Notes: generated by a model from the letters alone, not told the origin. Shown: positions 4,433 through 51,125, numbered from the stretch's first letter. The stretch is DNA of 64,000 bases from an uncultured delta proteobacterium (GCA_963695875.1 CAVOID010000011.1:192001-256000); one strand, 5' to 3'. Numbers and translations are program-made.

Positions 4433-4481
4433 CTTCCTGAAGTTTTGTTTTCCTAAGTCAACCCAGCCGTACAACATTTCA
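4433..4481 (+). repeat. Conserved 49-bp site, copy 1
   Basis: cttcc-tgaagttttg-N24-caacatttca. Confidence 0.85.
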
Positions 4482-4705
4482 TTTGAAAATAAACAAAAGT
4501 CGCACCATCAGTTTATACCCAAATTATTCACATAGGAATTTCACTGGTATACTGTCAGAAACCTCAGTCTATCCTTTGACCTTTATTGACTAAGGTATTT
4601 AGACTGCTGAAATCAGACTATGCCTGATGGATGGAACTAAGCAATAGATTCTATATATATTTATATTGCTCTTTCTGAATTTGAACAGAGTGGGGAGATG
4701 AATAT

Positions 4706-4999
4706 ATGATAAGAGTAATAATTGAAAGATACTGCAAGCCGGGTAAAGAAGCGCAACTCAGGGACTTGTTGAAAGAACTGAGAATGGCAGCAATGAGTCA
4801 ATACGGATACATCTCCGGCGAGACGCTTTGTGAATTAGATGATCCTTTACTCTTCATAGTCATTAGCACGTGGGCTACTCTTGAGGCTTGGAGAGAATGG
4901 CAGGTATCCAAGCGGCGCTTGCTAATAGAGCAAAGGATGGACTCTCTGATTACTACCGAGGAGAGGTTACGCATTTTGGCTTTTGATTATGAGATTTGA
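4706..4999 (+). CDS. Antibiotic biosynthesis monooxygenase (ABM) family protein
   Basis: KPGKE..L, QYGYISGETL, VISTWATLEAW pattern. Confidence 0.88.
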   Translation: MIRVIIERYCKPGKEAQLRDLLKELRMAAMSQYGYISGETLCELDDPLLFIVISTWATLEAWREWQVSKRRLLIEQRMDSLITTEERLRILAFDYEI

Positions 5000-5202
5000 T
5001 CTGGCACTTATAAGTGATGTTCTCAGCGCCATGTGCGGCAACGTAACGTAAGTATAATAAAAAAAGAGGATTACTATGCCAGTGTACAGAAAGGTGCGTA
5101 ACCGATCTATATTCATCTTATAAAATCTTACGGTATGGCGAAAGACATTTCATGTAGAGAAAAGAACAGTATGTCAACTTTTCAGAAAGGAGGCAACAAT
5201 TT

Positions 5203-5709
5203 ATGATTTCGGTAGATCTTTTAAAACAATACAAATTTTTCAAAGAGTTCAGTGAGGAACAGATCAAGAAACTGGCGGATATAGCTTCTGAAGAATCTTA
5301 TAGGGCTGGTTCTCAGTTATGGAAAAAGGGAGATCCGGCAAAAACCCTCTACCTGTTGGAAGGGGGAAAAGTTGTTCTGGTCATGGATGCTTACATGGGT
5401 ACTGCTAAACCCCCCATGCAGATCACTGTAGATATCGTCACAAAGGGAGACGCCATGGGATGGTCAACTGTCATTGAACCTTACGTGTACACTTTAGGAG
5501 CCCGATGTATTGATGATTCGAAAGTCATCGCCTTCGATGGAGCTAAACTCAGGGAGCTGCTAAGTAAAGACAGTACGTTAGGATATAATTTCATGCAAGC
5601 CACGGCAAAAGTAATAGCCACCCGTCTGACCCATACCGAAATTATTCTGGTTGGTGAGCGAGGACTCTCTATTTTGGATCGAATATTGAGTAAGAAGGAT
5701 AGATCATAA
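5203..5709 (+). CDS. Stand-alone cyclic-nucleotide-binding (CAP_ED) domain protein, no HTH
   Basis: FFKEFSEEQI..LA, KKGDPAKTLYLLEGGKV, GDAMGWS; AAGGAGG RBS. Confidence 0.88.
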   Translation: MISVDLLKQYKFFKEFSEEQIKKLADIASEESYRAGSQLWKKGDPAKTLYLLEGGKVVLVMDAYMGTAKPPMQITVDIVTKGDAMGWSTVIEPYVYTLGARCIDDSKVIAFDGAKLRELLSKDSTLGYNFMQATAKVIATRLTHTEIILVGERGLSILDRILSKKDRS

Positions 5710-5749
5710 AGGAGGTAGCCGCCATGTTTAAAGCTGCTACAAAAACGCA

Positions 5750-5935
5750 TCAACCGCAAATCTCGATGTCAACAAAAAACGATTATCCCCTAATAAAAAT
5801 AAAGGATGTAAATAAGAAGGTAAGGTTCAACCATATATTTTCATAAGAAAGAAATATTTTTAGGATTATTACCATTTTCTTAAAAATAATCCACATTTTA
5901 GGAAAAATATGAATTAACAAGTACACTCACTTATA
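5750..5935. repeat. Non-coding repeat B, copy 1 (direct repeat of 31815-32002)
   Basis: Shared blocks aaaaataaaggatgt.aataagaaggt, ttcaaccatatattttcataa, gattattaccatt. Confidence 0.85.
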
Positions 5936-6053
5936 CATACCCAAAAGGGATGGCGTGGAGGAAAGGCGTCTGAGACAGGCTTCCATATTGATGCCGGATC
6001 GTAAAACACCCTGCCAGATGTTCTGCGCTGTCTGCAGCGGGGAAGCCGTTTGC

Positions 6054-6605
6054 CTAGACCACTTCGCGATAGACGTCTGGATGGGGCCGAGAAATAACGA
6101 CAGAGTTTACCAGCAGGCCGCGTTCGGCGATCACGAGCTTGGCGGCCTGCGCGGCCGATTGAACTGCGGCGACATCACCGGTCATCGTGAAGTACGCCTT
6201 ACCACCAAGTGCCATTGCCAGGCGGATTTCCAACAGCGTCACATTTGCAGCCTTAGCTGCGGCGTCAGCCCCTTCCAGCAATGAGGCAACGCTGAATGAT
6301 TCTACAATTCCCAGTGCACCAACCAGTTCCGGCACTTGCGAACGGCCAAGAGCGGCGAAGACGTCGGCGTGAACGTTCGAAATGATGAATTTATCGATAA
6401 TACACCCGTTTGCCTCGATTACACCAGCCTCTACTGCGCGCTGCACGGCACCGACCGCGCCACCGATCAACACCATGTATTTGCCGGAGCAAATGCTGCG
6501 CGACAGGATGAGCTGGACGTTGGCCGCTTTCAGCATCACGTCGGCTACAGTAAAGCCGGCGGCGATGCTGGAGAGTTCAATTAAACCAATGGATTTCCCG
6601 TTCAT
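6054..6605 (-). CDS. pduT: BMC-T shell protein, PduT-like (Fe-S pore Cys)
   Basis: Tandem BMC domains; SICSGKYMVLIGG with conserved Cys; adjacent to pduS. Confidence 0.88.
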   Translation of the reverse strand: MNGKSIGLIELSSIAAGFTVADVMLKAANVQLILSRSICSGKYMVLIGGAVGAVQRAVEAGVIEANGCIIDKFIISNVHADVFAALGRSQVPELVGALGIVESFSVASLLEGADAAAKAANVTLLEIRLAMALGGKAYFTMTGDVAAVQSAAQAAKLVIAERGLLVNSVVISRPHPDVYREVV

Positions 6606-10775: not shown

Positions 10776-11370
10776 TCAATGCCTTCCTTTGGCTGGCGAT
10801 CTCGAAACAGCCATCAACTCATCCAAAACTTTTTTAATGGCACCTGCGACTGCCGCTGACCATGCCAGAACGAAGAGCAGGTCACTTAATCGATTGATAT
10901 AAACGATCAATTCCTCGTATGTTCCGGTGCTGCGATTGAGGCTTACGATCAGACGCTCAACCCGGCGGCACACGGAGCGAGCCAGATGGAGCGCAGCACT
11001 TTCCGGACAATCACCCGGAATTACAAAACCGCCGGGCATGCCGAACAAGTCAGTCATCTGATCAATCCAGTCCTCCAGCTTGTTTCACATCCTTTATGGT
11101 GATTCGATTTCCAAGTTGAGAAATCCGCTCTGCCGTCGAAGCCAACTCCGCACCAGCCACAAATAGATCTTTTTGAATAGCTCGAAGGATAGATCGCACA
11201 GATTCTTCCTGAATAAGGCTTCGAGCCATTCCGAGGTGAGATTGGAGTTCATCGAGCGCCCCATACGTGTTAACATGGAGGTCGTCCTTTTCGACAGTCT
11301 CTCCGCTCAAGAGTTTCGTCTGCCCTCGGTCGCCGAAACGAGTGTAGATTTTTCGCAAGACTTCAGCCAT
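10776..11370 (-). CDS. pduO: ATP:cob(I)alamin adenosyltransferase PduO, split by a +1 frameshift near 11085
   Basis: KIYTRFGDRGQT and YGALDEL in the first ORF; FVIPG, HLARSVCRRVER and YINRLSDLLF in the second. Confidence 0.9.
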
Positions 11371-26272: not shown

Positions 26273-26369
26273 AACGCCAATCTTCAATTTAGGATTGAAA
26301 AATCAAGGCTATTTCCAGAGGCAAATTTTCCCTTGACTACCCTTGATGTAAGGAGTATTTTTCAACCAA

Positions 26370-29984: not shown

Positions 29985-30049
29985 AAAAAACCAGAAAAAG
30001 GAGATTGTATACGTTAAGGACCCTATTACAGGCGAGAAAAGGAGGGAAT

Positions 30050-30472: not shown

Positions 30473-30479
30473 GAAAATG

Positions 30480-31814: not shown

Positions 31815-32002
31815 TCAACCGTAAATCTCGCTTTCAAAAAAACAATTAACCCGTAAAAATAAAGGATGTGAATAAGAAGGTGTAAAATTCAACCATATAT
31901 TTTCATAAAAAAGAAATATTTTTAAGATTATTACCATTATCTTAAAGATAATCGGTATTCGTGAAAGAATTCTTGCAACACTTGTTAACACCTACACTTA
32001 TA
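31815..32002. repeat. Non-coding repeat B, copy 2
   Basis: Direct repeat of 5750-5935. Confidence 0.85.
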
Positions 32003-32019
32003 AGGCCTCCAGATGTCAA

Positions 32020-33587: not shown

Positions 33588-33849
33588 GGGGCTTCCTCCT
33601 TCTTCTGGTATTATTTGGCCCTACTCAATTCCAAATATACCATGCTTTGGGGGAGGCCTTAAATAGTATCAAGTCTTTGCTCTGAGGTATCTTTCTTTTT
33701 TAATGATTACGGAAAGAAAGGGTGAAGACAAATATGCAATAATGGAATAAGGATTACAAGAAGAAACGGGTTAGAAAAGTGGTTATTTCTTCCGCTTACT
33801 AATGTTGACAGCCTTTATGTGATAAGCTGGCAAAATTCTGGGGTGACAT

Positions 33850-34119: not shown

Positions 34120-34602
34120 CTACCATTCATAGTCGTTCCGCATATCCAACGCGGCATCCTTGCTCAGCCTCCTTCCGTATTCCGTCAGCCTGGAGCTGAC
34201 AAGAGCTGCCAGATTCTTCATGAATACATAGCCTATATGCGGAACCTGATCGAAAAGCTTAAACAGATCCGCCCTTCTCAGGTAGATATCCTCCGTATTT
34301 TCCGCGCAGATCGCCGTTGCCGTATATTGGTAGGGTTCCACTAGGGCGGACCATCCTAAGGCTTCTCCCCCCACGGCGGTATGGATCTTTACATGTATAG
34401 TCGGGGCCTCGAAGTGCTTGACAACAATGTCCACTTTACCATTCCGGCAAAGATGCAACTCGCTCGCCGGAGTTCCCTGCAGAAAGCAGACGGCTCCTTT
34501 CTTCAGGCTTCGCTCCTGGCACAGTGGTACAATCCTGTTCAACTCGTCATCATTCAAGCCATGGAATAGATTGAATGCTTTCAACTCCTGAATTGCCGTC
34601 AT
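34120..34602 (-). CDS. Stand-alone cNMP-binding domain protein
   Basis: LFHGLNDDEL, GEALGWSALVEPYQYTATA. Confidence 0.87.
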   Translation of the reverse strand: MTAIQELKAFNLFHGLNDDELNRIVPLCQERSLKKGAVCFLQGTPASELHLCRNGKVDIVVKHFEAPTIHVKIHTAVGGEALGWSALVEPYQYTATAICAENTEDIYLRRADLFKLFDQVPHIGYVFMKNLAALVSSRLTEYGRRLSKDAALDMRNDYEW

Positions 34603-34669: not shown

Positions 34670-35089
34670 TCAGATGACCTCCTTGTAACTCTTAATAAGC
34701 CGTGTAGCGATGACCCCTGCCAGACGCTTCATGATCGTCAGACCCTCGGCAGGATGCTTTTGAAACACGCGCATCAGGCGATCTGCGTCAATTTTTATCA
34801 CCCTGCTTTCCTTTACACATTCCGCTTTAGCCGTGTACAGATTCGGCTCTACAAGTGATGACCAACCAAATACAGAACCTGTCTTATCTACTGAAAAGGA
34901 GAGTTGTTTATCCCTCTTAACGGTAAGATCAAGATCTCCTTCTTCAAGAATATAAAGATAATCTGCAAAATCGCCTTCTCGAAACAATACATGTCCTGCC
35001 GGGTGACTTTCCTGAGTGACGAGTTCTGCAATTTCGTCAATGATATGTGAGGGAATCCCTTTGAAAAGCTCTACTTCTTGTATGAACAT
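34670..35089 (-). CDS. Stand-alone cNMP-binding domain protein
   Basis: LFREGDFADYLYILEEG, GSVFGWSSLVEP. Confidence 0.87.
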   Translation of the reverse strand: MFIQEVELFKGIPSHIIDEIAELVTQESHPAGHVLFREGDFADYLYILEEGDLDLTVKRDKQLSFSVDKTGSVFGWSSLVEPNLYTAKAECVKESRVIKIDADRLMRVFQKHPAEGLTIMKRLAGVIATRLIKSYKEVI

Positions 35090-35127: not shown

Positions 35128-35607
35128 TCATTCAAGGGTAGACAGTCCCCTCTCACCAACCAATATGATCTGGGTGTGGGTCAGACGGGCGGCTATTACC
35201 CGCGCCGTGGCCTGCATAAAATTAAGTCCTAAAGCACCGTCTTGAATTAGTAGTTCCCTGAGTTTCTCTGCATCAAAAGCAATGGCCTTTGAATTGTCAA
35301 TGCACAGGGCCCCTAAGGTATAAGCGTAAGGTTCAACAACAGCGGACCATCCCATGGCATCGCCCTTTGTGACGATATCCACGGTCACCTGCATGGGGGG
35401 TTTAGCGGTGCCCATGTAACTCTCCATGAGCATGACAAATTTTCCCTCTTCCACGAGATAGAGTTTTTTTGCCGGATCACCTTTCTTGTAAACCTGGGCA
35501 CCTGCTTTAAACGATTCTTCAGAAGCGAAACCTGACAGTTTCTTTAAATCACCCTCATCAAAACCTTTAAAAAACGCGAATTGTTTTAAGAGATCTGCGG
35601 AAACCAT
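35128..35607 (-). CDS. Stand-alone cNMP-binding domain protein, close paralog of 5203-5709
   Basis: Shares YMGTAKPPMQ.TVDIVTKGDAMGWS and IILVGERGLS. Confidence 0.88.
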   Translation of the reverse strand: MVSADLLKQFAFFKGFDEGDLKKLSGFASEESFKAGAQVYKKGDPAKKLYLVEEGKFVMLMESYMGTAKPPMQVTVDIVTKGDAMGWSAVVEPYAYTLGALCIDNSKAIAFDAEKLRELLIQDGALGLNFMQATARVIAARLTHTQIILVGERGLSTLE

Positions 35608-37655: not shown

Positions 37656-37880
37656 ATATAGAATCTACTGCCAAGTGTCGTCCATCAGGCATAATCTTAT
37701 TTCAGCGGTCTAAATGCCTTAGTCAATAGAAGTTAGAGGATAGACTGAGAGTTCTGACAAGATACCTATGAAAATCCTATACGAATAATCGTGGGTATAA
37801 ACTGACGGTGTGACTTTTGTTTATTTTCACATGAAATGTTGTATGGATGGGCGGATTTATAAAAACAAGATTTCAGGAAG
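37656..37880 (-). repeat. Inverted paralog of 4433-4655, including 49-bp site copy 6 (37832-37880)
   Basis: Colinear ~225-bp match (gaaaataaacaaaagtc, cagtttataccc, ctcagtctatcct, tattgactaagg, tatgcctgatgga). Confidence 0.88.
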
Positions 37881-37997
37881 GAAGAGATAACTTTTTTGAA
37901 ACGTCTTTACTTAGAATGAATAATAAAACTGGGCTCCGGCGGATACCTTTTTGATTCTTTTTCCCCAGATTACCATCTTTCTTCCAACTTTTATGAA

Positions 37998-38245: not shown

Positions 38246-38725
38246 TCAGTCGGCCTTCCCTTTTTCCCTGCCTTCCCGCTTCTGCGGCGACTCCGGGAAG
38301 AGATCAAAGATCGACTTGAAGGGACTGATGGTCGGAATCGATCTCTTCGCCTGATCGACAAGGCTTGTACTGAGGTCAAGCCACTTTTTGAACTGTTCGT
38401 CTACCGACGACTTATGGGCCAGATAATTCCGGATGATCTGCTGCAGGTATTTCTCAAAAAATTCGCTGAGAACCGTCTCTCCGAACTGGATCATCAGGTG
38501 GAGCAGGGGAACGGGCAAAAGGAAGTTTTTCTTCTTTGCCTCTTCCAGGATAATCTGGGTCAGGATGAACGCCGTCACATCCTCCCTGGTCTTTGCATCG
38601 ATGACTTCGACCTGCCGGCCCTGCTTGATCATAGCAGAAACCTGGCTCAAGGTTACATAGGTGTTGTTTTCCGTATCGTACAACCGCCTGTTATTATATT
38701 TCTTGATGATCAGTACATCGCGCAT
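38246..38725 (-). CDS. phaR: PHA synthesis regulator PhaR-like
   Basis: IKKYNNRRLYDTE..YVTL, DAKTREDVT..LTQII. Confidence 0.9.
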   Translation of the reverse strand: MRDVLIIKKYNNRRLYDTENNTYVTLSQVSAMIKQGRQVEVIDAKTREDVTAFILTQIILEEAKKKNFLLPVPLLHLMIQFGETVLSEFFEKYLQQIIRNYLAHKSSVDEQFKKWLDLSTSLVDQAKRSIPTISPFKSIFDLFPESPQKREGREKGKAD

Positions 38726-38761
38726 ATCCCGTCCCCTTAATTCACCTTGATAGCCCAAATT

Positions 38762-38933
38762 ATGTTACAAAGCAACAAAAAATATTCTCCCCAGTACGTT
38801 GCGGAGTCATTGATAAAATTCAATTAATATTAATATATTACAATATTGCCACTTTTCATCATATCAAACGATCAAAAAATTATTGCTGCAATGCAACATT
38901 TTTCTTGACAAGCGAAAAATCAACGTGTATTTT
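38762..38933 (+). promoter_or_regulatory. Divergent phaR/phasin promoter with PhaR-type boxes
   Basis: ttgctgcaatgcaaca (38883-38898), tgttacaaagcaaca (~38763), TTGACA-17-TATTTT (38905-38933). Confidence 0.65.
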
Positions 38934-38983
38934 AGATAAAAAGATTTACAATGCATAAAAAATTTAAGCAGGAGGCTATTAGC

Positions 38984-39265
38984 ATGGATCCCAAGAGAAT
39001 TGCAAAGCAAACATTTGATTTTTACAAGTCTACATTTAACAACACTTTCAATGCCATGACAATGCTACAGGAACAGACCCAAAAAGTGATGGACATGTAC
39101 CTGGAGCAGATATCCGGATTCCCGGAAGAGGGGAAAAAAGCGATCAGTGAGTGGATTAATGCCTACAAAAAAGGCAGCCAGGACTTCAAAAAAGCAGTTG
39201 ACGAAAGCTTCAAGAAGGTTGAGGACTTTTTCTCCGAGGCCGGCAAACCAGCAAAAAAAGAATAA
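38984..39265 (+). CDS. Phasin-like granule-associated protein
   Basis: Amphipathic helical protein in the pha locus; paralog of the next gene. Confidence 0.7.
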   Translation: MDPKRIAKQTFDFYKSTFNNTFNAMTMLQEQTQKVMDMYLEQISGFPEEGKKAISEWINAYKKGSQDFKKAVDESFKKVEDFFSEAGKPAKKE

Positions 39266-39299
39266 ATAAAATTCAAAAAGGTGTAAGGAGGGTTCGATT

Positions 39300-39569
39300 A
39301 TGATGATGCAACCAAAACAGATGCTGAAACAGATGATTGATTTTAACAAAGCCGCCTTTGACAATGCTTTCAATAATATGGCAATGCTCCAGGGGCAGAT
39401 GGAAAGTATCATCAATACCTTTGTTGATCAGTCAACGGGAACGACGGAGGAAGGGAAAAAGGCTACCAAAGAATGGGCTGCGATTTATAAAAAAGGATTT
39501 GAAGACTTCAAGCGGTCCGTTGACGATAATTTTAAAAAAGTTGATTCTTTTTTCCTGCAGGGCAAATAA
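39300..39569 (+). CDS. Phasin-like granule-associated protein
   Basis: KQMIDFNKAAFDNAF..EEGKKA..EW..YKKG..FK..VD..FKKV shared with the previous gene. Confidence 0.7.
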   Translation: MMMQPKQMLKQMIDFNKAAFDNAFNNMAMLQGQMESIINTFVDQSTGTTEEGKKATKEWAAIYKKGFEDFKRSVDDNFKKVDSFFLQGK

Positions 39570-39738
39570 GCGAAGCGTTCCGCCCCAGGGGTTATGACAT
39601 TGCACGCCATCGCACCGCTTATCAAGCGGGACTTGGCGATGAATCCGGTGGCGAGCGTAAACACCTTCGCTTGCTGCGGGGTAAGCGAGCGAAGCGGAGA
39701 ACTTCAATTATTTCATAGATAAATATATAGATAAATAT

Positions 39739-41328
39739 ATGGAAGAACGAAACATGAAAGAGCTGCCCATGTCCAGTGCATTCCTGGATCTGTGTAATGC
39801 AGTGACATCTCTCCCCTACAGGTTGATGGACATGAACATAAAAACGATCATGTCCTCGGCAGAACTAATGAAGGCAACCCAAGCATACGCGAATGGCCTT
39901 TACAGCTACTACTTCAACTTCATGGCTCCTTACTGGGTCGCGTTAAACTCCTTTCAAGCCATGGAGAAAGTAAAGCTCATCAATCATGGGCCTGATGAAA
40001 CAGCCAGGGATTATCTTGAGCTTTTCCGATTCAACCTCGAGATTGCAAAAAAGGGGTTACTCAGCACGCTGCGGACGGTGAATCATTTTCATGCCCGGGA
40101 ACTGGAAAGAACCATTTCGGCATGGATAAATACGGTCCTCGACCGAAAAGGAGAAGATATATCATCATACACGCAACGACTGTCCAGGCTCATGGAAATG
40201 CTGACCTATCATTACCCGGAAGTAATTCGCGACATCGAACCAGAATTCGGTTTCCATTTTGACGATGGCGGATATCTCAAGGTGGCTGAGACGGATCGCT
40301 TTTATCTCTATCAGGTTTTACCCTGGAAGAATAAGACGCGGGTGAGGCAGAAAAGCAAACCGATCCTCATTATTCCCCCCTATGTATTGGGCGCATCCAT
40401 TGTTGGCTTCTTGCCGGGCGAGGATAAAAGCTATACCCACTGCTTCGCGAACCAGGGCATTCCAACGTATATCCGGATTATGAAGGATATCAATACCACC
40501 CCGGCGGTGCAAATCACGACAGGAGAGGACGACTGCCTCGACACCCGACATTTCTGTGAAATCATTAAGGCAAGACATGGAAAACAGGTGACCCTGAACG
40601 GTTTCTGCCAGGGCGGTTTTGTTGCATTGCTAAGCTTGCTCTCCGGGAAACTGGACGGCCTGGTTGATGCCTTTATTACCTGTGTGGCGCCGATTGACGG
40701 CACACGCAGCACGGCACTCGTGGAGTACCTCGAACACATCCCGGACCGATTTAGGGATCTGGGGTATGCTTTGAAAGCCATGCCCAGCGGGAATCAGGTT
40801 GTTGATGGGAAGGTCATGAGCTGGGTTTACAAGCTGAAAAGCATGGAGCGAGAGGCGCCCATTTTTACGTTCTACCGTGATCTCAAGATGTTTGATGCAC
40901 CAAACGTCGATGAGGTGAAAATCAGCAAGACAGCTGCAGCTCTTAATTACTGGCTTACTTATGAACGCAATGATCTTCCCCGCGACATTTGCCAGTTGAG
41001 CTTTGACTCTTTTACAAAACCGATCACCAGTGATGGAACCCTGCCTGTTAAGCTCTTCGGGCAGGAACTGAACTTCAAGCGATTAAAAGAAATGAATATG
41101 AAGTGGCTCCTCTGCTATGCGGAGGAGGATGACCTCGTGGATAAAGAAGCTGCTCTGGCACCGCTGGATTATGTTGATGTGGAGGTTACGGTATTTCCCA
41201 AGGGTCACGGCGCCATTGCGACATCCTGGTCTCTCCCGACATCTGAATGCGCGCTCCATACATGTTTCCGAGGTGGATACCGTGGTCCAGTGCGCTACCA
41301 GTTAGACCTCGATAAGGGAACCGCGTGA
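39739..41328 (+). CDS. PhaC-like alpha/beta hydrolase (divergent PHA synthase or depolymerase)
   Basis: PILIIPPY, GFCQGG lipase-box Cys, EEDDLV Asp, KGHGAI His. Confidence 0.7.
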   Translation: MEERNMKELPMSSAFLDLCNAVTSLPYRLMDMNIKTIMSSAELMKATQAYANGLYSYYFNFMAPYWVALNSFQAMEKVKLINHGPDETARDYLELFRFNLEIAKKGLLSTLRTVNHFHARELERTISAWINTVLDRKGEDISSYTQRLSRLMEMLTYHYPEVIRDIEPEFGFHFDDGGYLKVAETDRFYLYQVLPWKNKTRVRQKSKPILIIPPYVLGASIVGFLPGEDKSYTHCFANQGIPTYIRIMKDINTTPAVQITTGEDDCLDTRHFCEIIKARHGKQVTLNGFCQGGFVALLSLLSGKLDGLVDAFITCVAPIDGTRSTALVEYLEHIPDRFRDLGYALKAMPSGNQVVDGKVMSWVYKLKSMEREAPIFTFYRDLKMFDAPNVDEVKISKTAAALNYWLTYERNDLPRDICQLSFDSFTKPITSDGTLPVKLFGQELNFKRLKEMNMKWLLCYAEEDDLVDKEAALAPLDYVDVEVTVFPKGHGAIATSWSLPTSECALHTCFRGGYRGPVRYQLDLDKGTA

Positions 41329-41428
41329 TTGAACCTGTGACGGTTTACCTGAGGGCCCCGGTTCCATTGCGTTGCCGGGCTTGGTTTATCCAGGAACGGA
41401 ACATGCCTGGCATTTTTGAACAGGAGAA

Positions 41429-41932
41429 ATGGTGATGGACAAAAAATTCCTTGAATTCTGGGGGACTTTCCTGCTGAATGCAGCCAAGGGACAGGAGCAT
41501 CTGGAGAACATGACCCAATGGTTCAGCGAGGGTTTCAAAGGCTTTGAGCAGCAAATGAGTCTTTTCCGGAAGTGCTATGGCCTCGACCGTGAACCCGAAT
41601 CGTCTCCCAATTACATGAAGATGTGGTCAAAGGCAACATCTGATTTTCAGAATTCCTATAAGGAATTACTGGGCCTTATGGGATTGGTTCCAAAAGAGGA
41701 ATATCTTACCCTGGCAGAAAAATATGAAGCATTGAAGGAAAAGCTCGCTTCCCAGGATGAAACGATCCGTCATCTGAAGATGAAGAGCACTGCAGGGGAC
41801 ATCGATCAGGGCGAGGTCGTAAAGGGATTCGAGGTGCTTATGAAAAACCAGGCCGAGCAGTTCCAGGAAGTGATGAAGTCCTTTGGTCAACTCTATAAGG
41901 AACCCCAGAAGAAAAAGAACACGAAAAAATAA
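41429..41932 (+). CDS. Hypothetical coiled-coil protein in the pha locus (PhaE-like features)
   Basis: LMGLVPKEEY..L..KYEALK resembles the PhaE C-terminal motif. Confidence 0.6.
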   Translation: MVMDKKFLEFWGTFLLNAAKGQEHLENMTQWFSEGFKGFEQQMSLFRKCYGLDREPESSPNYMKMWSKATSDFQNSYKELLGLMGLVPKEEYLTLAEKYEALKEKLASQDETIRHLKMKSTAGDIDQGEVVKGFEVLMKNQAEQFQEVMKSFGQLYKEPQKKKNTKK

Positions 41933-42312
41933 TTTAATGTTTCACCCGGAAATGCCATAAGAATTATGAATCAAAGAACAAGACACCGGGTGCAGAGTAA
42001 GGATTCGGGTACTGATCCGGACTTCCAATTTCTGAATATATACTTTACGCCGCCGGCGTGTTTCCCAGGAAGAAAGAAACATGATTCGGTGGGTGCTCCA
42101 CATCTTCCTCCATCTCAAAGTGCGTAACTGCGGACGTCGCTCCAGCTACTATGAAATTCAATCGAATCTGTCAACGCCAACCCTGAACATTCGAATTCGG
42201 ATATTGATCATTCTTCAAGATTAACGTTTCTCAAAAACGCAGCCGTTCAGAAGAGTCTGTATTTCTGATATGTACTACAAAATAAACATCTCATTAAAAA
42301 AAGAGGGGAAAC

Positions 42313-43218
42313 ATGAATAAGGAAGAAAAAGAAAAGAGTATGCCACAAGACGCCCTCCTTGAATCCTGGATCAAGACTTCCACGGATTTATGGAAATCTA
42401 CAGCATCCATGTGGCCCGCCCCCTTTGGGGGGATTTCACCGGTACCTGGCGAAGCAGGGAAAGAAGGGGGGGATAAAAGCACCGAGGATTCATGGAACAT
42501 GCTTTCTGAAATATGGCAGGTGCTTTTCAACCTCATCAACAAACCCGTGACGGGCGAATTTCACCCTTTAAACTCTCTCCCCGAATGGATGCTGAAGGCC
42601 TCCCAGCCCCTGTGGTCCGGATATCTTCTGTTCCAGAAACAGTGGATGGAGGGGGAGGAAAAAGTCTCCGCGGGGGAGCTTGAAGGCTTTGCAAACATGG
42701 CCCAGAAAATGAAGAAGGCGTGGCTTGAAATGTACGAAAAGGAGTTCGGGCAAATCCTGAAAATGCCTCAGCTGGGACTGACACGTTTCTACCAGGAGAG
42801 GATGAACCAAACTATTGAAAAATTTACCCAGTTTCAGGGAGCGTTGACCGAATTCATGCAGATTTTATTAATTCCTATGGAGAAAGCCTATAATGAGGTG
42901 GGGACGGAAATTAAAAATTTAGAGAAACAGGGAAAAGAGGCTCTCAAGGATTCCAAGGCATATTATCAATTCTGGATTAAAAAAATGGAAGAGAACTATA
43001 TGGTTCTCCTAAAGTCTCCCGAATATACCGAAACACTGGGGAATACCGTAAAAGCCCTGCACGATTTCCGTATAGTGAGATCGCATCTTTTCATGGATAT
43101 CTTGCAGGACTTACCCATCCCGACAAACAAGGACATGGATGAACTTTACAAGGATCTGTACCTTTTGAAAAAACGGGTCAAAGAACTCGAGAAGAAGGTG
43201 AAGAGCTATGAAAGATGA
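42313..43218 (+). CDS. phaE: Class III PHA synthase subunit PhaE
   Basis: MPQLGLTRFYQE, YQFWI..EE.Y, LPIPTNKDMDELYKDLY.LKK. Confidence 0.92.
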   Translation: MNKEEKEKSMPQDALLESWIKTSTDLWKSTASMWPAPFGGISPVPGEAGKEGGDKSTEDSWNMLSEIWQVLFNLINKPVTGEFHPLNSLPEWMLKASQPLWSGYLLFQKQWMEGEEKVSAGELEGFANMAQKMKKAWLEMYEKEFGQILKMPQLGLTRFYQERMNQTIEKFTQFQGALTEFMQILLIPMEKAYNEVGTEIKNLEKQGKEALKDSKAYYQFWIKKMEENYMVLLKSPEYTETLGNTVKALHDFRIVRSHLFMDILQDLPIPTNKDMDELYKDLYLLKKRVKELEKKVKSYER

Positions 43219-44407
43219 AAAGCAAGTCAATCTAAGCGATATGATGGGTCCTTTCAAAATGGCCGGCGATCTTATTTTTGCGGGGCTGGCAGGGGATACG
43301 GCCAAGCTCTACAATTATTTAAGAGATGCCCGGAATGTGCTGCTCAGTCCGATGAAAACGGACATCGCCACGACCCCTTACGAAGTGGTTTACGAGGAAG
43401 ACCGGGTAAAGTTGAAATACTACAAGCCTGACACGGAAACCCGGCTCAAGCATCCCTTCCTCATTGTTTATGCCCAGGTAAATCGAGAGACCATGCTGGA
43501 TCTCCAGCCGGGAAGAAGCGTTGTGGAGACATTCCTCAGGGCGGGGCTCGATTTTTACATGATTGACTGGGGGTACCCGACCCGGAAGGACCGGTACCTT
43601 ACCCTTGATGATCATATCAACGGATATATTGACAATATCGTGGATTTTATTCTCGAGAAGCACAATATTTCCAGCCTTCACCTGATGGGCATCTGTCAGG
43701 GAGGAACTTTCTGTGTCATCTATGCAGCTTTGCACCCAGAGAAGATTAAGAACTTCGTAACCACCGTGACGCCAACCAACTTTGACACGGACGCAAGCCT
43801 CTTAAATATCTGGGCAAGGTCCCTCAATCCGGATGAACTGGTGGAGGCTTATGGAAATATCCCAGGAGACATCATGAATCTCGGATTTCTCCTCCTCAAT
43901 CCGGCCCGCCTGATGATTGACAAATATGTAGGCTTTCTCGAGAATGTGAATAACTTTGATTTCGTGGAGAACTTTGTCCGCATGGAGAGATGGATCTTCG
44001 ACAGTCCCGACTTACCGGCGGAGACATTCCGGGAATTCATCACGAATTTCTATAAAAAGAACCTTCTGATAAAAAACGAGTTGGAAGTTGGCGGCAAGAA
44101 GGTGGATCTCAAGAAGATCACCATGCCTGTGTTAAACATCTATGGGAAGTACGATCACCTTGTCCCGCCCGCCGCGTGCGATCAGTTCATCGGTAAAATT
44201 GGAAGCAAAGACAAGGAAGATCTCTGCCTCGACACGGGGCACATCGGCATCTATGTCAGTTCGAAAACTCAGAAAGAGTTTGGACCGAAGATTATCCGCT
44301 GGCTGCTGGAAAGGGACGGTGTGGTAGAAAAGGCACCGCAAAAGCCGGTGGCCAAGAAGCCTGTTGCGAAGAAGAGTCAGGCCAAGGCGAAGGCGCCAGG
44401 CAAATAG
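43208..44407 (+). CDS. phaC: Class III PHA synthase PhaC
   Basis: TPYEVVY, LDLQP, IDWGYP, GICQGG, MERWIFDSPD, YDHLVP, TGHIG. Confidence 0.95.
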   Translation: MKDEKQVNLSDMMGPFKMAGDLIFAGLAGDTAKLYNYLRDARNVLLSPMKTDIATTPYEVVYEEDRVKLKYYKPDTETRLKHPFLIVYAQVNRETMLDLQPGRSVVETFLRAGLDFYMIDWGYPTRKDRYLTLDDHINGYIDNIVDFILEKHNISSLHLMGICQGGTFCVIYAALHPEKIKNFVTTVTPTNFDTDASLLNIWARSLNPDELVEAYGNIPGDIMNLGFLLLNPARLMIDKYVGFLENVNNFDFVENFVRMERWIFDSPDLPAETFREFITNFYKKNLLIKNELEVGGKKVDLKKITMPVLNIYGKYDHLVPPAACDQFIGKIGSKDKEDLCLDTGHIGIYVSSKTQKEFGPKIIRWLLERDGVVEKAPQKPVAKKPVAKKSQAKAKAPGK

Positions 44408-44441
44408 AAATTCCAAAAAGTGAGGAGAAGGGGAGAACCAT

Positions 44442-45488
44442 ATGGCTGAAAAAAATGACTATTTCAAAGCGATGAGTAAAATTTGTAAGGCTTTCGGACT
44501 GACGGGGGACAGGGATGAACTCCTCAATCTCGTTGTTCTGAGTGCCGTGGAAACGATTAAAGCCAAGGCAGCATGCCTCTATATGAAAGGCAAGGAGAAA
44601 AATAAATATGTAGTCGTTGCTCAGACAGGACTTTCCAAGAACTACCTTCAGGCGGCACAGAAGCGTGTCGGGCACGTCATGAAGCTTCTAAAAGAAAAGG
44701 ACTATATTCATTATCGTGACGCGAAGACAGATCTCAGGCTCCCGAACCATGAATCTATCATCTCTGAGGGAATCGGTTCCATTTTAATTGTTCCGGTCAT
44801 GGTAAAGGGGCAGATGATTGGTAGCCTCGCCCTTTACACATCCGACATCAAAGACTTTTCCAAAAAGGAGATTGAATTTCTCTCCATCCTTGCCGAACAG
44901 GGAGGCACAGCCATTGAAAATACTAGCTTGATAGAAAAAATGAGAGAACAGACGAGAATTTTCCTCGAACTTGCCGCGAGTATTATGGAGAGTCAGGATA
45001 TAAAGAAGATTTTGCATACGTTGACTGCTGATGTTGCAAAGGCTATCGGAGTAAAAGCAGCCTCCATTCGCCTCCTGGATGATGCTAAGGTCACATTGAA
45101 ACTCGCTGCGAGCTTTGGTCTTTCCGAAAAGTATATCAACAAGGGACCCATATCAGCGGAAAAAAGTATCGCAGAGGCACTCAAGGGGAAGCCGGTTGTC
45201 GTCAAAGACGCTGCGAAAGACGGTGGTGTCCAGTACAGGGAAGAAAAGAAAGAAGAGGGGATTGTTTCCATTCTCTGTGTTCCCATCAAGTCGAAGGAGG
45301 AAGTATTCGGTGTCCTTCGGCTGTACACTGAAACGGAGCGGGAGTTCACGGATGATGAAATCCAGTTCGTGACGGCGCTTGCCTATCTGGGAGGTGTGGC
45401 CATTCAGAACGTAAACCTCTATTCGATGTTGAAGAGCGACATCAAAGATCTGAGAGACGATTTCTGGATATTCAAGTCTTGGTTTTAA
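44442..45488 (+). CDS. Tandem GAF-GAF protein with no output domain
   Basis: Two GAF repeats (SILIVP..GSLALY..FS..EIEFL; SILCVP..GVLRLY..FT..EIQF). Confidence 0.85.
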   Translation: MAEKNDYFKAMSKICKAFGLTGDRDELLNLVVLSAVETIKAKAACLYMKGKEKNKYVVVAQTGLSKNYLQAAQKRVGHVMKLLKEKDYIHYRDAKTDLRLPNHESIISEGIGSILIVPVMVKGQMIGSLALYTSDIKDFSKKEIEFLSILAEQGGTAIENTSLIEKMREQTRIFLELAASIMESQDIKKILHTLTADVAKAIGVKAASIRLLDDAKVTLKLAASFGLSEKYINKGPISAEKSIAEALKGKPVVVKDAAKDGGVQYREEKKEEGIVSILCVPIKSKEEVFGVLRLYTETEREFTDDEIQFVTALAYLGGVAIQNVNLYSMLKSDIKDLRDDFWIFKSWF

Positions 45489-45517
45489 TGCAGAGATCAG
45501 ATAAAAGGAGGGTACTT

Positions 45518-45946
45518 ATGATCGGAAAAACAATGAACGAGCTGAACGTCGGAGACGCGGCTGAATTTTCCAAGACCGTCTCCGAAGCCGACGTTTACCT
45601 CTTCGCCGGCGTAACCGGCGACCTGAACCCGGCCCATATCAATGAGGCATACGCGCAGAAGACCTTCTTCAAGACGCGGATTGCTCATGGCATGCTTTCG
45701 GCAGGTTTTATATCGGCCGTCCTCGGCAACCAACTTCCGGGACCCGGCACCATATACATTCGACAGGAACTCAATTTCCTGGCACCGGTGCGGATCAGGG
45801 ACACCGTCACGGCCCGGGTCGAGGTCATAGAAAAGATCACAGAAAAAAACCGTGTCAGGTTCCGGACGACATGCGTAAACCAGGAGGGTACAATGATCAC
45901 GGATGGGGAAGCCCTCGTAAGTCCTCCAAAGGATCTAAAATCCTGA
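45518..45946 (+). CDS. phaJ: (R)-specific enoyl-CoA hydratase (MaoC)
   Basis: TGDLNPAH, RIAHGML, LPGPGTIY, FLAPV. Confidence 0.9.
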   Translation: MIGKTMNELNVGDAAEFSKTVSEADVYLFAGVTGDLNPAHINEAYAQKTFFKTRIAHGMLSAGFISAVLGNQLPGPGTIYIRQELNFLAPVRIRDTVTARVEVIEKITEKNRVRFRTTCVNQEGTMITDGEALVSPPKDLKS

Positions 45947-48376: not shown

Positions 48377-48495
48377 TGACCTGCCCACCAAATATGTACC
48401 TACCACATTAAAAGTTAGAATTCTCTGTTTTTCAATTGTTTCTATTTGAAATAGTGCATATGGAAGGAAATATCATTTTCATTGATAACAGGAAG
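48377..48495 (-). repeat. 49-bp site copy 7 (48447-48495) followed by an IS3-type end (48377-~48420)
   Basis: cttcc-tg-N32-cactatttca; same site plus IS-end arrangement as 27622-27738. Confidence 0.7.
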
Positions 48496-48684
48496 AACGA
48501 GATAAAAAGGAAGTTGTTGAGTTCACCTACGAGTCCTTGAACCCGGCTTAACGATAAAAGTGAAGATTACCGATACAAAGCTCGTATTCTCGACTTGATT
48601 GTTATATTCGATTTGCAATCACCCATTTTCATACATTTTTCTTGATATAACGATAGGTCAGTGTATTATAATTGCAGGCATCGA

Positions 48685-48828
48685 ATGAACCGTCCGTATC
48701 GACCTGCTTTGGGAATCGATGCAGCATTAGATGAGATTGCCAAGAACAAGAGTATACTCTATGACCCTGAAGTAGTGGATGCATGCTTGCAGATTTTCAA
48801 TGAGAAGGGCTATAAGCTGGTAGATTGA
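48685..48828 (+). pseudogene. HD-GYP phosphodiesterase C-terminal remnant
   Basis: RPYRPALGIDAALDEI..LYDPEVVDACL. Confidence 0.75.
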
Positions 48829-48987
48829 CGATTACCATCGGAGAGAGAGCAGCTGTTTCAAAATCTTGGGATTCTCCATTTCAGGAAGGTCGTGAATAAG
48901 ATACAATCAATCGGATTTACTGATATTATTTGTCAACCATGTGGCGTCCCAAAAATGAGTATCACGTTGGATTAGAAAGGAGTCGAT

Positions 48988-49185
48988 ATGCATAATAGCA
49001 TCATAAGGGTAACAGGGATAGTATTGCTGTGCGTAATGGCGCTGTTATGTCAGTCATGCGCAACTTTAAAATGCGAAACAGAAAGACAATCATGTAAATG
49101 GGATTGTCCACAGACAGTGGTAATAAAGCAAGCTTGCGAACAAGCGTGTAACATTTCATATGACATTTGCAGAAGCAAAGAATGA
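48988..49185 (+). CDS. Small Cys-rich lipoprotein
   Basis: Signal peptide ending LCQS-C; C-x6-C-x3-C and C-x3-C-x6-C. Confidence 0.65.
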   Translation: MHNSIIRVTGIVLLCVMALLCQSCATLKCETERQSCKWDCPQTVVIKQACEQACNISYDICRSKE

Positions 49186-49809
49186 AAGAGGAATTGGGTC
49201 GCATTGGAACAACCCGACATTTGAGATGCGCACACTTTTTTACCGTAAGGCAGGATTAATGGATCTCAGCGTAGGGTAAGGTGAGCATCTGAACACCGGT
49301 AATTAAACATGATCACTTAATCTCTGCCATGCCCGTGTTCGCTGCATACTTAGGTTGTGCTTTGCCATATTTGGTAGCCGGTGTAATAACTCTGCGTTAC
49401 AGACGGAAAGAAAGCAATTCTGCAAATCACTTGGCGGATCTCTGTTGATTTGGCCCTTTTCGGCATATTTCAGACATGCCTCACCGGCAAATTTCGAAGG
49501 CGTCATGCCTGGATATAGTCATCCCAAAAATATTCTGGATCCCGATAGAGGTGATCGTCGTTCATTTCGAATTGAAACGGAACATGAGCGAACTGATTGG
49601 GAGAAACAACACTAACAGGAAGGAAGCGGTAAATAGGGTAGCGTTGAGTTGACCTACAACTAAATGATTTTAGAAAGCTGCTACTCCGGATTTCTATTTG
49701 AAAGTTACAATGCTCGTAGAAGACGGTGGTGTGGGTGGTTGAAGAAAAAATGGAGATACTGAGAAATAAAACAATGGTTGAGGTTAGAATTGATTTCCTC
49801 ATGGGAAGT

Positions 49810-50067
49810 TCATCTATTGGCGTCTCGAATATTCCTTTCTCTTAAATCTGGGTGAACACACTTATTCCAGTCGTAAATCGTATTGACCCCATTTCTTTTG
49901 CCGACACCGCATTCCATGTTGTGATCGCAATCTATATCTACGATAGCTCTTCCATCTACTTTATCTGTTAAAGCGTTTCTATGAAGGAAAACTTGACGAG
50001 TAATCGTCACTTCAGCACCTATTTTTGAACACTCAAATTCTTCAAATTCGATATCGCTTTCTGGCAT
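49810..50067 (-). CDS. Hypothetical Cys-containing protein
   Basis: 85 aa, four Cys. Confidence 0.55.
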   Translation of the reverse strand: MPESDIEFEEFECSKIGAEVTITRQVFLHRNALTDKVDGRAIVDIDCDHNMECGVGKRNGVNTIYDWNKCVHPDLRERNIRDANR

Positions 50068-50409
50068 TTTTTATACTTTCGCTTCTTTCAACACCAAGAC
50101 GTTTCCAATCTCATCTCGGAACACTTCATCTGTTAAGGTTGTGACCCTTTACTGCGTTCCTTGCAAGAATTACCCTTTTTTCTGTTTGGATCTTATAAGT
50201 CTTTATTGCATCTCCAATCTTTAAAGCCGAAGATTCAACACCATCCGCCAAATTCAATTCATCATATTCAAAATAAATTAATTCTTTAATATCGAACTTC
50301 CAAGATTCTTACATGCCTTTAACCACTACTTATAAAAGTATTTCTCCACAAATCGTTCATTTTCTGCCACTTCCAATTTGGGGTTGGATTGTTGGCTGTC
50401 TGAGGAGGG

Positions 50410-50925
50410 TCATTTATTTGGCCAGTCAGAAAATGCTGGTGACGCAATAATTGTAACTTGCGGAGGTGTGGCTACTTGAAGTTCGTGACCTGGGGGCAGT
50501 GCGGCACCGAATAAGAATTCCTTGCCGTCTTGTGATTGATAAAGGGGTTTCACATATTGTTGGCCTATGGGGAAATTGAAAACTGAAGTGGTAGTGGGAT
50601 GTGTAGATGATGCGGAAATGATGACGTAGTTGGGATGTTCGGTGTCAGTATTGCGAGCTTCGAGAGTGTTCTGGTTCTTGCCGAGGAGTCTATCTGATAG
50701 AGAAGGCGTTTTTAAATCAACCTCAAACCATGCAACTTTTGCATGAAGGTGTGAGCCAGGATTCGCTAAAGAAGCGGTCAAAAGGGCAAAAAAGACGCAG
50801 GCAACGAAAGTGAAGGTAAGAATCAGGGGGGGTGATTTTTTATAAACGGCTGAGGCAAGGCATATGAATGATACGATAAAACATAGAGAAAAGAGCACGG
50901 TGATGGCAGACAACGATGGCATCAA
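50410..50925 (-). CDS. Hypothetical two-TM membrane protein
   Basis: Two N-terminal TM helices; AAGGAG RBS. Confidence 0.6.
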   Translation of the reverse strand: MMPSLSAITVLFSLCFIVSFICLASAVYKKSPPLILTFTFVACVFFALLTASLANPGSHLHAKVAWFEVDLKTPSLSDRLLGKNQNTLEARNTDTEHPNYVIISASSTHPTTTSVFNFPIGQQYVKPLYQSQDGKEFLFGAALPPGHELQVATPPQVTIIASPAFSDWPNK

Positions 50926-51076
50926 ATCTCCTTTGATGTTGCAAGGTGAGATTGTGAAACATCACGTTTTTACGTAAGCATGCTCTAACTATGCATGGCA
51001 TCTGATGCATAGTTTAATTCGTCAGAAATATTCTGACTACTTCTGCACGCGTTTTTTCATTATCACGATTTCAAAA

Positions 51077-51125
51077 AGAAATCTATTATGAAAAAGGAAA
51101 TCAAACGATTACAGCTTTCAGGAAG
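51077..51125 (-). repeat. Conserved 49-bp site, copy 8 (degenerate)
   Basis: cttcc-tgaaagctgt-N24-atagatttct; adjacent 51135-51176 matches 28237-28279 upstream of copy 4. Confidence 0.55.

Follow-up and report, generated by a model that had tools for sequence, protein, structure and literature searches.

ERIC, REP/BIME-REPIN, Correia and BOX sequences are palindromic or carry inverted repeats at their ends. For several of them a transposase is known or suspected, some contain promoters, and some are built as mosaics of sub-modules. The pdif modules of Acinetobacter plasmids are Xer-dependent and have 28-bp dif-like sites in inverted pairs. Putative mobile promoters (PMPs) lie ahead of non-paralogous genes and are at least 80% identical over 50 nt or more (Matus-Garcia, Nijveen and van Passel 2012, per PMC3575422). 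ERIC, REP/BIME-REPIN, Correia and BOX are the dispersed intergenic repeats named in PMC3575422. We compare these systems, and integron cassette arrays, with an element found in a 64,000-nt window, which is the whole stretch of DNA that was analysed.

The window belongs to a Syntrophales MAG. The first-pass annotation had reported eight copies of a 49-bp palindromic site in it. A sequence-only covariance model was seeded with 45 copies from the genome, including the six strong copies of the window, and run over the window with filters off. There are 11 matches at E <= 0.001. These are the six strong copies (53.6-61.9 bits) and five weak ones (17.0-31.0 bits), none of which is in the seed. The eight reported copies all begin with the invariant 7-mer at the positions given for them, six of them being strong and two weak, but three further weak copies had been missed. 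The housekeeping flanks were said to have no copies, and indeed nothing in the window matches outside 4430-51128 at E <= 0.1. The copies and the features around them are as follows.

4430-4501, + strand, first base 4433: strong copy (54.2 bits), head of a ~290-bp repeat common to the copies at 37880 (-), C5:109794 (+) and C7:8813 (-)
4706-4999: ABM-domain gene, then a cNMP-binding gene, downstream of copy 4433
26221-26294, + strand, first base 26224: strong copy (56.4 bits), opens a same-direction array
26507-27001: C_GCAxxG_C_C gene, the next gene after copy 26224
27619-27690, + strand, first base 27622: strong copy (54.5 bits)
28328-28400, + strand, first base 28330: strong copy (53.6 bits) with two junctions inside
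28340-29191, + strand: gene unit of 852 bp, made of the body and leader of copy 28330, an acyltransferase gene (28489-29109), a 3' tail and the first 9 bases of copy 29183
29180-29254, + strand, first base 29183: strong copy (58.1 bits)
31982-33675: IS110-family insertion, its left end 18 bp from the end of the weak copy at 33693-33766
33693-33766, - strand: weak copy (23.9 bits), overlooked earlier
37813-37884, - strand, first base 37880: strongest copy (61.9 bits), with a long leader of the same family as copy 4433
48428-48499, - strand: weak copy (19.7 bits), first reported at 48447
48821-48891, - strand: weak copy (18.3 bits), overlooked earlier
49559-49625, - strand: intermediate copy (31.0 bits), overlooked earlier
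51054-51128, - strand: weak copy (17.0 bits), first reported at 51077

The conserved unit is gap-free and about 65-70 bp long. It runs to about position 64-70, so the length of 49 bp was an underestimate. Its 5' edge is sharp, at an invariant CTTCCTG. There are five rigidly spaced conserved blocks, and the same pattern is found in 45 copies of the window's genome and in the 31 top copies of 16 other genomes, which span several genera and families. Since the conservation is block-wise with rigid spacing and the flanking DNA has none, it points to selection acting on putative binding sites and not to decaying recent insertions. Two 10-bp arms lie at positions 6-15 and 40-49. They are internal and 24 bp apart, and the two ends of the element are unlike each other. 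The arms were described as an imperfect inverted repeat. They are complementary at the consensus level (70.4% of cells pair, against 36-46% with one arm slid), but their covariation does not exceed that of shuffles, of which 63 in 500 score at least as high, and RNAalifold, run on the 45 copies, gives 0 pairs. The proposed arm-N24-arm pattern, with at most 3 mismatches, occurs in half of the eight copies first reported (4438, 26229, 28335 and 37832), where 0.02 would be expected and 0 of 100 shuffles reached 4.

The element is a lineage-specific, oriented, non-coding, dispersed intergenic repeat of the Syntrophales, found in the window's family and a few others. The window's genome, which is only 82.6% complete, has 76 matches at E <= 0.01 on 13 of its 16 contigs. 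It is a family-wide dispersed repeat instead of a set of sites that partition the accessory region of the window. All 21 other genomes of the family have matches, from 2 to 108 each. Outside the family the distribution is patchy, with 114, 12 and 4 matches in three families and zero in ten. A likeness to serine-recombinase att sites had been suggested, but tens to more than 100 copies per genome (76 here) do not suit an attP/attB pair, of which each element has one, together with a cognate serine integrase. The copy number and chromosomal dispersal also speak against a MOBP-type oriT nic, a kind of site expected once per mobile element and with a relaxase gene. Copies are also found singly, adjoining housekeeping genes.

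Orientation was counted for the 61 best of the 76 matches, the 15 weakest having been omitted beforehand, relative to the next ORF of 90 aa or more. Co-oriented copies number 46 and opposed ones 11, and 4 are inside ORFs. The upstream neighbour is also mostly on the element's strand (43 versus 14). For most copies the first base is followed by a start codon after 64-440 bp. Among the six strong ones this distance is 273, 283, 177, 159, 283 and 188 bp, so three of them, and not four copies as first counted, are about 260-285 bp upstream of a start. Eleven of 57 copies are followed by a convergent gene, whose end they face. Across three genomes 47 adjacent pairs within 5 kb have the same direction and 7 have opposite directions. 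Copies in same-direction arrays are 0.4-4.7 kb apart. The array of units that was described at 26-30 kb holds up as one of these, and its genes are on different contigs in relatives. One family of copies abuts the terminator of PEP-CTERM genes.

Whether synteny breaks at the site was a check set in advance, and homology breakpoints do fall inside it. Those from related genomes and from paralogous copies coincide with conserved blocks. They cluster in the 5' core at positions 1-10 (junctions at 6-11), at 46-48 and at the 3' edge around 70-74, and positions 1-10 are not further resolvable since match ends are drawn towards conserved blocks. Two of the places where junctions gather lie at the inverted arms. 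The 852-bp unit has 90% identity in two metagenome contigs (L115 and L116) and spans position 11 of one copy to position 9 of the next. There is no homology beyond either end, and its neighbours in L115 and L116 differ and have their own element bodies. At the right-hand junction the overlap is just 8 bases, too little to come from an assembly artefact and short for ordinary homologous recombination. Core junctions like those of this unit recur in four further comparisons. A 606-bp block (27737-28340) with 92% identity to C7 stops at position 10 of copy 28330. The rhodanese block of C7 stops at position 10 in both G000 and G041, and the bodies after the junction differ. Two 90-bp tails stop at positions 6 and 10. 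Among in-register paralogous matches, 17 of 26 begin between -6 and +2.

Further breaks are seen against G041, the closest relative. The GYD-gene block upstream of copy 27622 is 93% identical up to position 48, and the downstream Zn-ribbon block picks up again at position 74 on another contig. Copy 29183 has 86.5% homology to G041/L052 from position 46-47, through the rubrerythrin-like gene, to 29990. There is no site at 29990. The Zn-ribbon block in G041 also has ends off the element, running from about 115 bp past copy 27622 to 51 bp short of copy 28330. In L045/L046 the first 65 bases hold 8 of the 14 mismatches, and identity over the following 370 bases is 98%. Other repeat families abut the element on both sides, which makes the intergenic regions mosaics. 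Within the genome it is the element plus a 115-300 bp leader, ending before the start codon, that has been copied ahead of genes of different families. Paralogous copies carry leaders and not genes, so the capture of whole cassettes that was first proposed is not what this copying reflects.

PMPs are highly similar stretches of non-coding DNA upstream of non-paralogous genes, both inside single genomes and between genera and families, and the majority lack an Rfam match (PMC3575422). The element is alike in this. Positions 1-246 of copy 26224 have 84% identity to C7:27027 (-), which precedes a different gene, and copies 4433 and 37880 are 83.6% identical over 225 bp. Both pairs exceed the PMP thresholds (PMC3575422), and the downstream genes belong to different Pfam families or to none. 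However, PMPs are mostly BLAST pairs (PMC3575422), whereas this is one family of tens to more than 100 copies. Further differences are its fixed head of 65-70 bp, the sharp 5' core, the arrays of one direction and the internal homology breaks. Integron cassette arrays and CALINs are similar in that small gene units of the same direction are parted by a conserved site (attC), their boundaries are in a short invariant core, and neighbours are reassorted between genomes. However, attC is 3' of the gene and the element is 5'. The element also lacks a folded-hairpin signature and an integrase over the cut-off, has arrays at many loci and several break positions, and occurs as single copies by housekeeping genes. 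An attC site is an imperfect palindrome that folds in single-stranded form by pairing its inner and outer boxes, and the integrase gene is usually beside the array. The box order of the attC consensus is the reverse of the order in the element. Like ERIC, REP, Correia and BOX, the element is short, gene-less and only intergenic, with a copy number that varies between related species and positions that are not conserved. Unlike them it is asymmetric and oriented with genes, and the sole Y1 transposase tested does not co-occur with it. In pdif modules too short recombination sites bound gene modules with no recombinase gene adjoining. A dif/Xer site (28 bp, with two 11-bp arms and a 6-bp centre) was rejected, as the element is by eye unlike the Syntrophus aciditrophicus dif given in PMC2731167.

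A linked enzyme was another check on the first-pass annotation, and neither an integron integrase nor a recombinase that goes with the element was found. The best hit to the NCBIfam integron-integrase model over the 82.6% complete genome reaches 82.3 bits, where the cut-off is 265. The genome has a single Y1 gene (C4:140133-140843), which no copies flank, and no homologue of it was found in G007, G013, G014 and G032, which have 37-114 element matches. A REP/RAYT (REPIN) system was rejected on these grounds. A small tyrosine recombinase adjoins one copy, but it is present in just 5 of 41 genomes and is not regularly beside a copy. Both recombinases examined fail to track the distribution of the element.

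We argue, at close to an even chance, that the element is a portable upstream control module, a repeat of the PMP type, that is reassorted by recombination between its copies. Its rigidly spaced blocks would be promoter- or operator-like protein-binding sites recognised by a conserved host factor, and the module would head transcription units and be re-used ahead of unrelated genes. Because the copies share long conserved blocks they would recombine with each other. This would rejoin DNA left and right of the element, giving shuffled gene units and same-direction arrays. We infer that the element is bound by a host protein and affects transcription, and that its recombination is driven by homology rather than catalysed at the site. 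The breaks are in several conserved blocks and not at one point, and the L045/L046 mismatches are concentrated in the first 65 bases, a distribution of the kind that homology-guided recombination would produce. No canonical sigma-70-type hexamer pair (16-18 bp apart) was found at a constant place in the element, by scan or by reading of the consensus, which counts against a control module. The sigma-70 consensus scan covered 25800-30600, with promoters of other sigma factors outside it, and gave 12 sites where 10.5 would be expected. None of them keeps a constant offset from the four copies in that stretch. No sigma-54 box or other second motif is enriched downstream either. The copies that face convergent gene ends also argue against it, as does the tendency of both neighbours, and not just the downstream gene, to be on the element's strand. 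One can imagine a scenario where a plain regulon operator or alternative-sigma promoter sits at fixed places upstream of a conserved gene set. Orientation and start-codon distance fit this, and many of the genes that follow copies seem to have to do with stress or the envelope (AhpC, rubrerythrin-like, Usp, BON, OmpA/glycine-zipper and TPR lipoproteins). However, in other genomes the element precedes none of 23 AhpC homologues, and of 13 rubrerythrin-like loci just one keeps partial remains of it. This largely refutes a plain activator operator, the alternative first considered, and being absent ahead of orthologues is unusual for a regulon even under the control module we favour. The downstream genes are also very diverse within and between genomes, and none of those identified is a regulator or sigma gene. 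We consider a plain regulon very unlikely. A structured RNA, either a leader or a small RNA, would fit the long leaders and the co-orientation with genes, but it is the least credible of all. The arms give no covariation or predicted pairs, and the window and 84 kb of other copy-rich loci have no Rfam match at gathering score except three tRNAs.

The crossover sites of a cassette system that were first proposed deserve more weight. In this scenario a dedicated site-specific recombination system would have an att-like site at the 5' end of each gene cassette. An enzyme would cut in the core, and perhaps also near position 46, where the arm hexamer recurs in inverted form, and excised cassettes would re-insert at other copies to give arrays at many loci. 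The 852-bp unit runs from core to core, which is more in keeping with a cassette. The 8-base junction, the other core junctions, the match starts near position 1 and the hot spots at the inverted arms agree with it. So do the patchy distribution outside the family and a back-to-back pair of copies (C13:66435-66571) joined at the core. The tight arrays of one direction also resemble cassette arrays more than a regulon. However, there are at least three break positions and not one fixed crossover, other block ends ignore the element, no examined enzyme follows it, there is no hairpin covariation, and within-genome copies have leaders instead of genes. A cassette system is possible but doubtful. 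Its fuller form is somewhat more doubtful still. This would be an undescribed, integron-independent system in the Syntrophales with an oriented 65-70 bp att-like site 5' of each cassette, strand exchange at the 5' core and possibly at the arm near position 46, a putative enzyme encoded elsewhere, and reshuffled same-direction arrays at many chromosomal loci, each cassette having its own expression head. It is improbable that the element is instead a small mobile element of some 70 bp, non-autonomous and MITE-like or REP/ERIC-like, or a two-part mosaic (sub-modules 1-46 and 47-70), inserted at a preferred target by an enzyme in trans with gene shuffling as a side effect. It is a discrete unit with breaks at both edges (1 and 70-74) and in the middle, its positions are not conserved between species, related genomes have 2-114 matches, and the abutting repeat families are in line with this too. 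However, the 45 aligned copies have no terminal inverted repeats at the edges and no target-site duplication, the latter being a weak test as no empty-site pair was found. A MITE was rejected on its internal arms, unlike ends and lack of duplication. The gene-orientation bias and the position-specific conservation across families are unexpected of decaying insertions, the Y1 (RAYT-type) transposase does not co-occur, and the complete genome G007 has no replichore-wide strand bias of copies of the kind that single-strand transposition would give.

If the element is a portable control head, promoters are re-used at the scale of a whole bacterial family. This would explain how newly acquired small genes are wired into a common expression programme in these syntrophs. 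If it is a true recombination site, there would be a second cassette-capture system, unrelated to integrons, in environmental anaerobes with few genetic tools. The putative binding protein would lend itself, as a well-defined target, to DNA pull-down or DAP-seq. Under either reading the element can serve as a practical marker for genome plasticity and for breaks in the assembly of Syntrophales MAGs. Two contigs of G041 start exactly at the first base of a 124-bp copy that is 94% identical to the copy at 51054-51128.

The repeat is an element of some 65-70 bp at the level of DNA sequence. The first-pass annotation had described eight 49-bp palindromic sites, and all eight stretches do open with the invariant 7-mer CTTCCTG. 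Over 59 copies, information content rises abruptly at the 5' end with the first base of this 7-mer, which we count as position 1. The blocks that are conserved span positions 1-11, 14-20, 24-27, 37-50 and 56-58, and conservation is absent before position 1 and beyond about position 65. Just one of 45 aligned copies requires a one-base gap. The proposed pattern of two arms around N24, searched with up to 3 mismatches, recovers half of the copies (4/8 against 0.02 expected), and none of 100 shuffles reaches four. The 10-bp arms are complementary at the level of the consensus, with 70.4% of cells pairing versus 36-46% when one arm is slid, but their covariation does not exceed that of shuffles. 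RNAalifold predicts no pair in the consensus structure of the aligned copies. Rfam at the gathering score has no match in the window, and in 84 kb of other copy-rich loci it finds three tRNAs and nothing else. The lack of covariation above shuffles, of predicted pairs and of an Rfam match therefore argues for an element defined by its DNA sequence. It is not a 49-bp hairpin.

Copies were detected in two ways. A position matrix trained on the six good copies and iterated across G000, the window's own genome, gives 59 matches of at least 23 bits. This matrix is self-trained, so its result was not relied on alone. A sequence-only covariance model was also built from 45 aligned G000 copies. Its seed includes the six strong window copies (first bases 4433, 26224, 27622, 28330 and 29183 on the forward strand and 37880 on the reverse). 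With filters off, this model has 11 matches in the window at E <= 0.001. The six strong copies score 53.6-61.9 bits, all six being in the seed. Two copies that had been called degenerate are weak but detected, and three further weak copies are new.

Weak copies of the element in the window (covariance model, E <= 0.001, outside the seed)
33693-33766, reverse strand, weak copy, new
48428-48499, reverse strand, weak copy, previously called degenerate
48821-48891, reverse strand, weak copy, new
49559-49625, reverse strand, weak copy, new
51054-51128, reverse strand, weak copy, previously called degenerate

The flanks are indeed free of copies, as there are no covariance-model matches in the window at E <= 0.1 outside 4430-51128. 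The further claim that the sites partition the accessory region fails. G000 is a 2.86-Mb MAG in 16 contigs that is 82.6% complete, and its 76 matches at E <= 0.01 are spread over 13 contigs. The covariance model was used to scan 40 relatives at E <= 0.001, 21 from the same family and 19 from other families of the order. Every genome of the same family carries matches, from 2 to 108 each. Of the 19 genomes from other families, ten are without a match at this threshold and were used as negative controls. The remaining nine comprise six genomes with 1-2 matches and three with 4, 12 and 114. The same columns are conserved in the best copies from 16 other genomes. Since matches occur genome-wide and family-wide, the element is not peculiar to the accessory region.

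The gene context was counted for the 61 best G000 matches, leaving out the 15 weakest and considering ORFs of at least 90 aa. Four of the 61 fall inside such an ORF. The next ORF is co-oriented in 46 cases and opposed in 11. Upstream, 43 neighbours share the strand of the element and 14 diverge from it. Start codons are mostly 64-440 bp past the element's first base. The genes downstream are highly diverse: AhpC, rubrerythrin-like, Usp, BON, OmpA/glycine-zipper, TPR lipoprotein, cNMP-binding, zinc-ribbon, GNAT, PIN and AIPR proteins, and histidine kinases. In other genomes the set is different again. Copies are clustered, and adjacent pairs within 5 kb (spaced 0.05-4.7 kb) mostly point the same way: 17/22 in G000, 14/14 in G007 and 16/18 in G019. 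There is no replichore strand bias in the complete genome G007, where the 37 matches follow local clusters and not the two halves. The 260 bp on either side of 45 copies hold no strong shared second box, as enrichment of 6- and 7-mers shows sub-family repeats alone. Nor is there a sign of an upstream terminator. The best 40-nt hairpin in the 120 bp before these copies averages -9.2 kcal/mol, no different from the -9.7 kcal/mol of 150 intergenic stretches taken at random (p = 0.37). A consensus scan of 25800-30600 in the window gives 12 sigma-70-type sites against 10.5 expected, none of them at a fixed distance from the four copies in that stretch, and none of the four sigma-70-family genes in G000 is downstream of a copy.

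What is copied within the genome is the element plus leader. Paralogous matches run from the first base onward for 115-300 bp and end short of the start codon, and the genes behind them are mutually unrelated. Sub-families have longer tails in common, and one of them is listed here.

Sub-family with a longer tail of about 290 bp (first bases)
4433, forward strand, window
37880, reverse strand, window
C5:109794, G000
C7:8813, G000

The long intergenic regions are mosaics, since the element is bordered on either side by repeats of other families. A second repeat family is found directly upstream of some copies (28228-28300 and about 51130-51165 on the reverse strand). It also occurs in genomes G002, G004 and G005, beside the element or alone, at 80-92% identity over positions 2429-2557 of the query.

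The main positive result is that homology breaks inside the element, in several copies at the 5' core (positions 1-10). This was the test that the first-pass annotation had itself put forward. Two metagenome contigs, L115 and L116, match the stretch 28340-29191 (the acyltransferase unit) at 90% identity. The shared block begins at position 11 of copy 28330 and stops at position 9 of copy 29183, with zero homology to these contigs beyond either end. They continue with another element body and other genes, a GYD-domain gene and then an unrelated 401-aa ORF, and L116 has an IS110-family element upstream of the block. An assembly chimera is unlikely because just eight bases are common across the right-hand junction. 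Within G000, a block of 606 bp (27737-28340) recurs on contig C7 at 92% identity. At both loci its end is position 10 of a copy, and the bodies that follow are unlike each other. In G000 and in its closest relative, G041, the rhodanese block of C7 runs up to position 10 of the copy that follows, and again the bodies differ. Positions 6 and 10 are also where two 90-bp tails stop. Copies of G000 give 26 in-register matches to one another: 17 begin between -6 and +2 (9 exactly at 1), four begin upstream (-593, -39, -36 and -35), three at 11-13 and two at 41.

Breaks are also found further into the element. In copy 27622, the GYD block of G041 keeps 93% identity as far as position 48, and homology returns at position 74 with the Zn-ribbon block, on another contig. 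The rubrerythrin block of G041 and the extracted locus L052 begins at position 46-47 of copy 29183, a block of G041:C6 at position 46 of copy C7:42936, and a block of genome G042 at position 70 of copy C7:46264. Two pairs of extracted loci, L045/L046 (97% identity) and L040/L044 (90%), match from the element's first base on and not upstream. In L045/L046, 8 of the 14 mismatches are inside the first 65 bases, so the true break is probably near the 3' edge. Several ends argue against a strict link of breaks to the element: the Zn-ribbon block begins about 115 bp past copy 27622 and stops, in G041, 51 bp short of copy 28330, the end of the rubrerythrin block at 29990 has no site, and one block begins at position 85 of a copy. 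It must be noted that match ends are drawn to conserved blocks, so breaks anywhere in positions 1-10, or in 44-50, are indistinguishable.

At G000:C13:66435-66571 two back-to-back copies have one common core. The first bases of the left-hand copy, in reverse complement, run straight into the right-hand copy, which begins at about position 8. The pair may be the product of inversion or of breakage at the core. In contigs G041:C8 and G041:C69 the first 124 bases are a copy of the 51077 element at 94% identity, and each contig opens precisely with base 1 of that copy. The repeat is breaking MAG assemblies here.

A recombinase beside a copy was another check on the cassette proposal, and none of the candidates fits. 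No match in G000 reaches the family cut-off for an integron integrase. There are six tyrosine-recombinase matches and one Y1 transposase. A homologue of the Y1 transposase was not found in four genomes that have 37-114 matches to the element. A 230-aa tyrosine recombinase is 335 bp from copy C5:2406, but it is present in just 5 of 41 genomes and not regularly beside a copy in the 10 loci examined. IS110 elements occur near some copies without targeting them. The one at 31982-33675 (transposase 32544-33587, reverse strand) is 18 bp from a weak copy, and its 98.5% identical twin at C7:29993-31686 has no adjoining copy. Members of a different IS110 family occur at C6:20438-21406, at C11:111428-111943 and, in L116, upstream of the acyltransferase unit.

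We tentatively argue for a re-used upstream control module with recombination guided by shared sequence, a reading to which we give not quite an even chance. The element would be bound by a protein and re-used before unrelated genes. Its block-wise conservation across families, its gene-ward orientation and the copying of head and leader before unrelated genes all suggest such a module, and we infer protein binding or an effect on transcription from them. Recombination guided by the shared sequence would leave breaks scattered over the conserved blocks, and the scatter of breakpoints points this way. One can imagine instead a gene cassette recombination system that uses the element as its site. 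In its favor are a unit that runs from core to core, a junction with very few shared bases, the arrays, and positions that are no longer conserved. The layout of copies is like an integron array. However, there are several break positions and no enzyme, and the paralogous copies are gene-less, so we consider cassettes unlikely but worth keeping in mind. The element also lacks tested features that define integrons, namely the integrase and the paired fold.

The other explanations fare worse. A MITE-like mobile repeat is improbable, as the element lacks the defining features of MITEs that were tested, and the same is true for REP/RAYT systems. Compared by eye with the dif of Syntrophus aciditrophicus (PMC2731167), it shows no likeness. 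A plain regulon is very improbable, since the element is not a conserved regulon site. Relatives of the rubrerythrin-like gene (29466-29984) occur in 13 other genomes, and only the closest of them, L052 (86%), retains remains of the element upstream. The AhpC gene behind copy C11:103960 has homologues at 23 loci of other genomes and one paralogue in G000, and no match lies within 1.5 kb of any of these 24 loci. The genes of the 26-30 kb array are on separate contigs in same-genus and closer genomes. An RNA element is scarcely credible, as no Rfam family matches. Among known systems, putative mobile promoters and dispersed intergenic repeats come closest to how the element behaves. Copying of element and leader before unrelated genes fits the definition given for putative mobile promoters in PMC3575422. 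Literature searches on Syntrophus/Smithella intergenic repeats, putative mobile promoters and promoter propagation turned up no description of this element.

Some neighbors of the element deserve mention. One sub-family (C7:45650-45830, about 5650-5830 in extracted locus L082; C7:42936; C7:65462) has a two-way terminator-like hairpin after the element. Beyond the hairpin is the C-terminal sorting tail of a convergent gene, which we take to be PEP-CTERM-like. Because the hairpin and this tail come next, these copies face a gene end and not a gene start. The 3' end of a tRNA-like sequence is about 75 bp upstream of one copy (G000:C5:109690-109794). The PHA gene cluster at 38246-45946 (PhaR-like, PhaE, PhaC class III, GAF protein, MaoC dehydratase) has no DNA matches at E <= 1e-15 in G041. 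Five small proteins of 139-168 aa (5203-5709, 30998-31444, 34120-34602, 34670-35089 and 35128-35607) consist of a cyclic-nucleotide-binding domain alone, with zero DNA-binding domain matches. Three of them are in tandem, and further proteins of this kind adjoin copies on C7. In the pdu microcompartment operon, the cobalamin adenosyltransferase (10776-11370, reverse strand) is divided into two ORFs of 102 and 93 aa, which correspond to the N- and C-terminal portions of the Pfam profile. A frameshift or an error of sequencing could account for this split.
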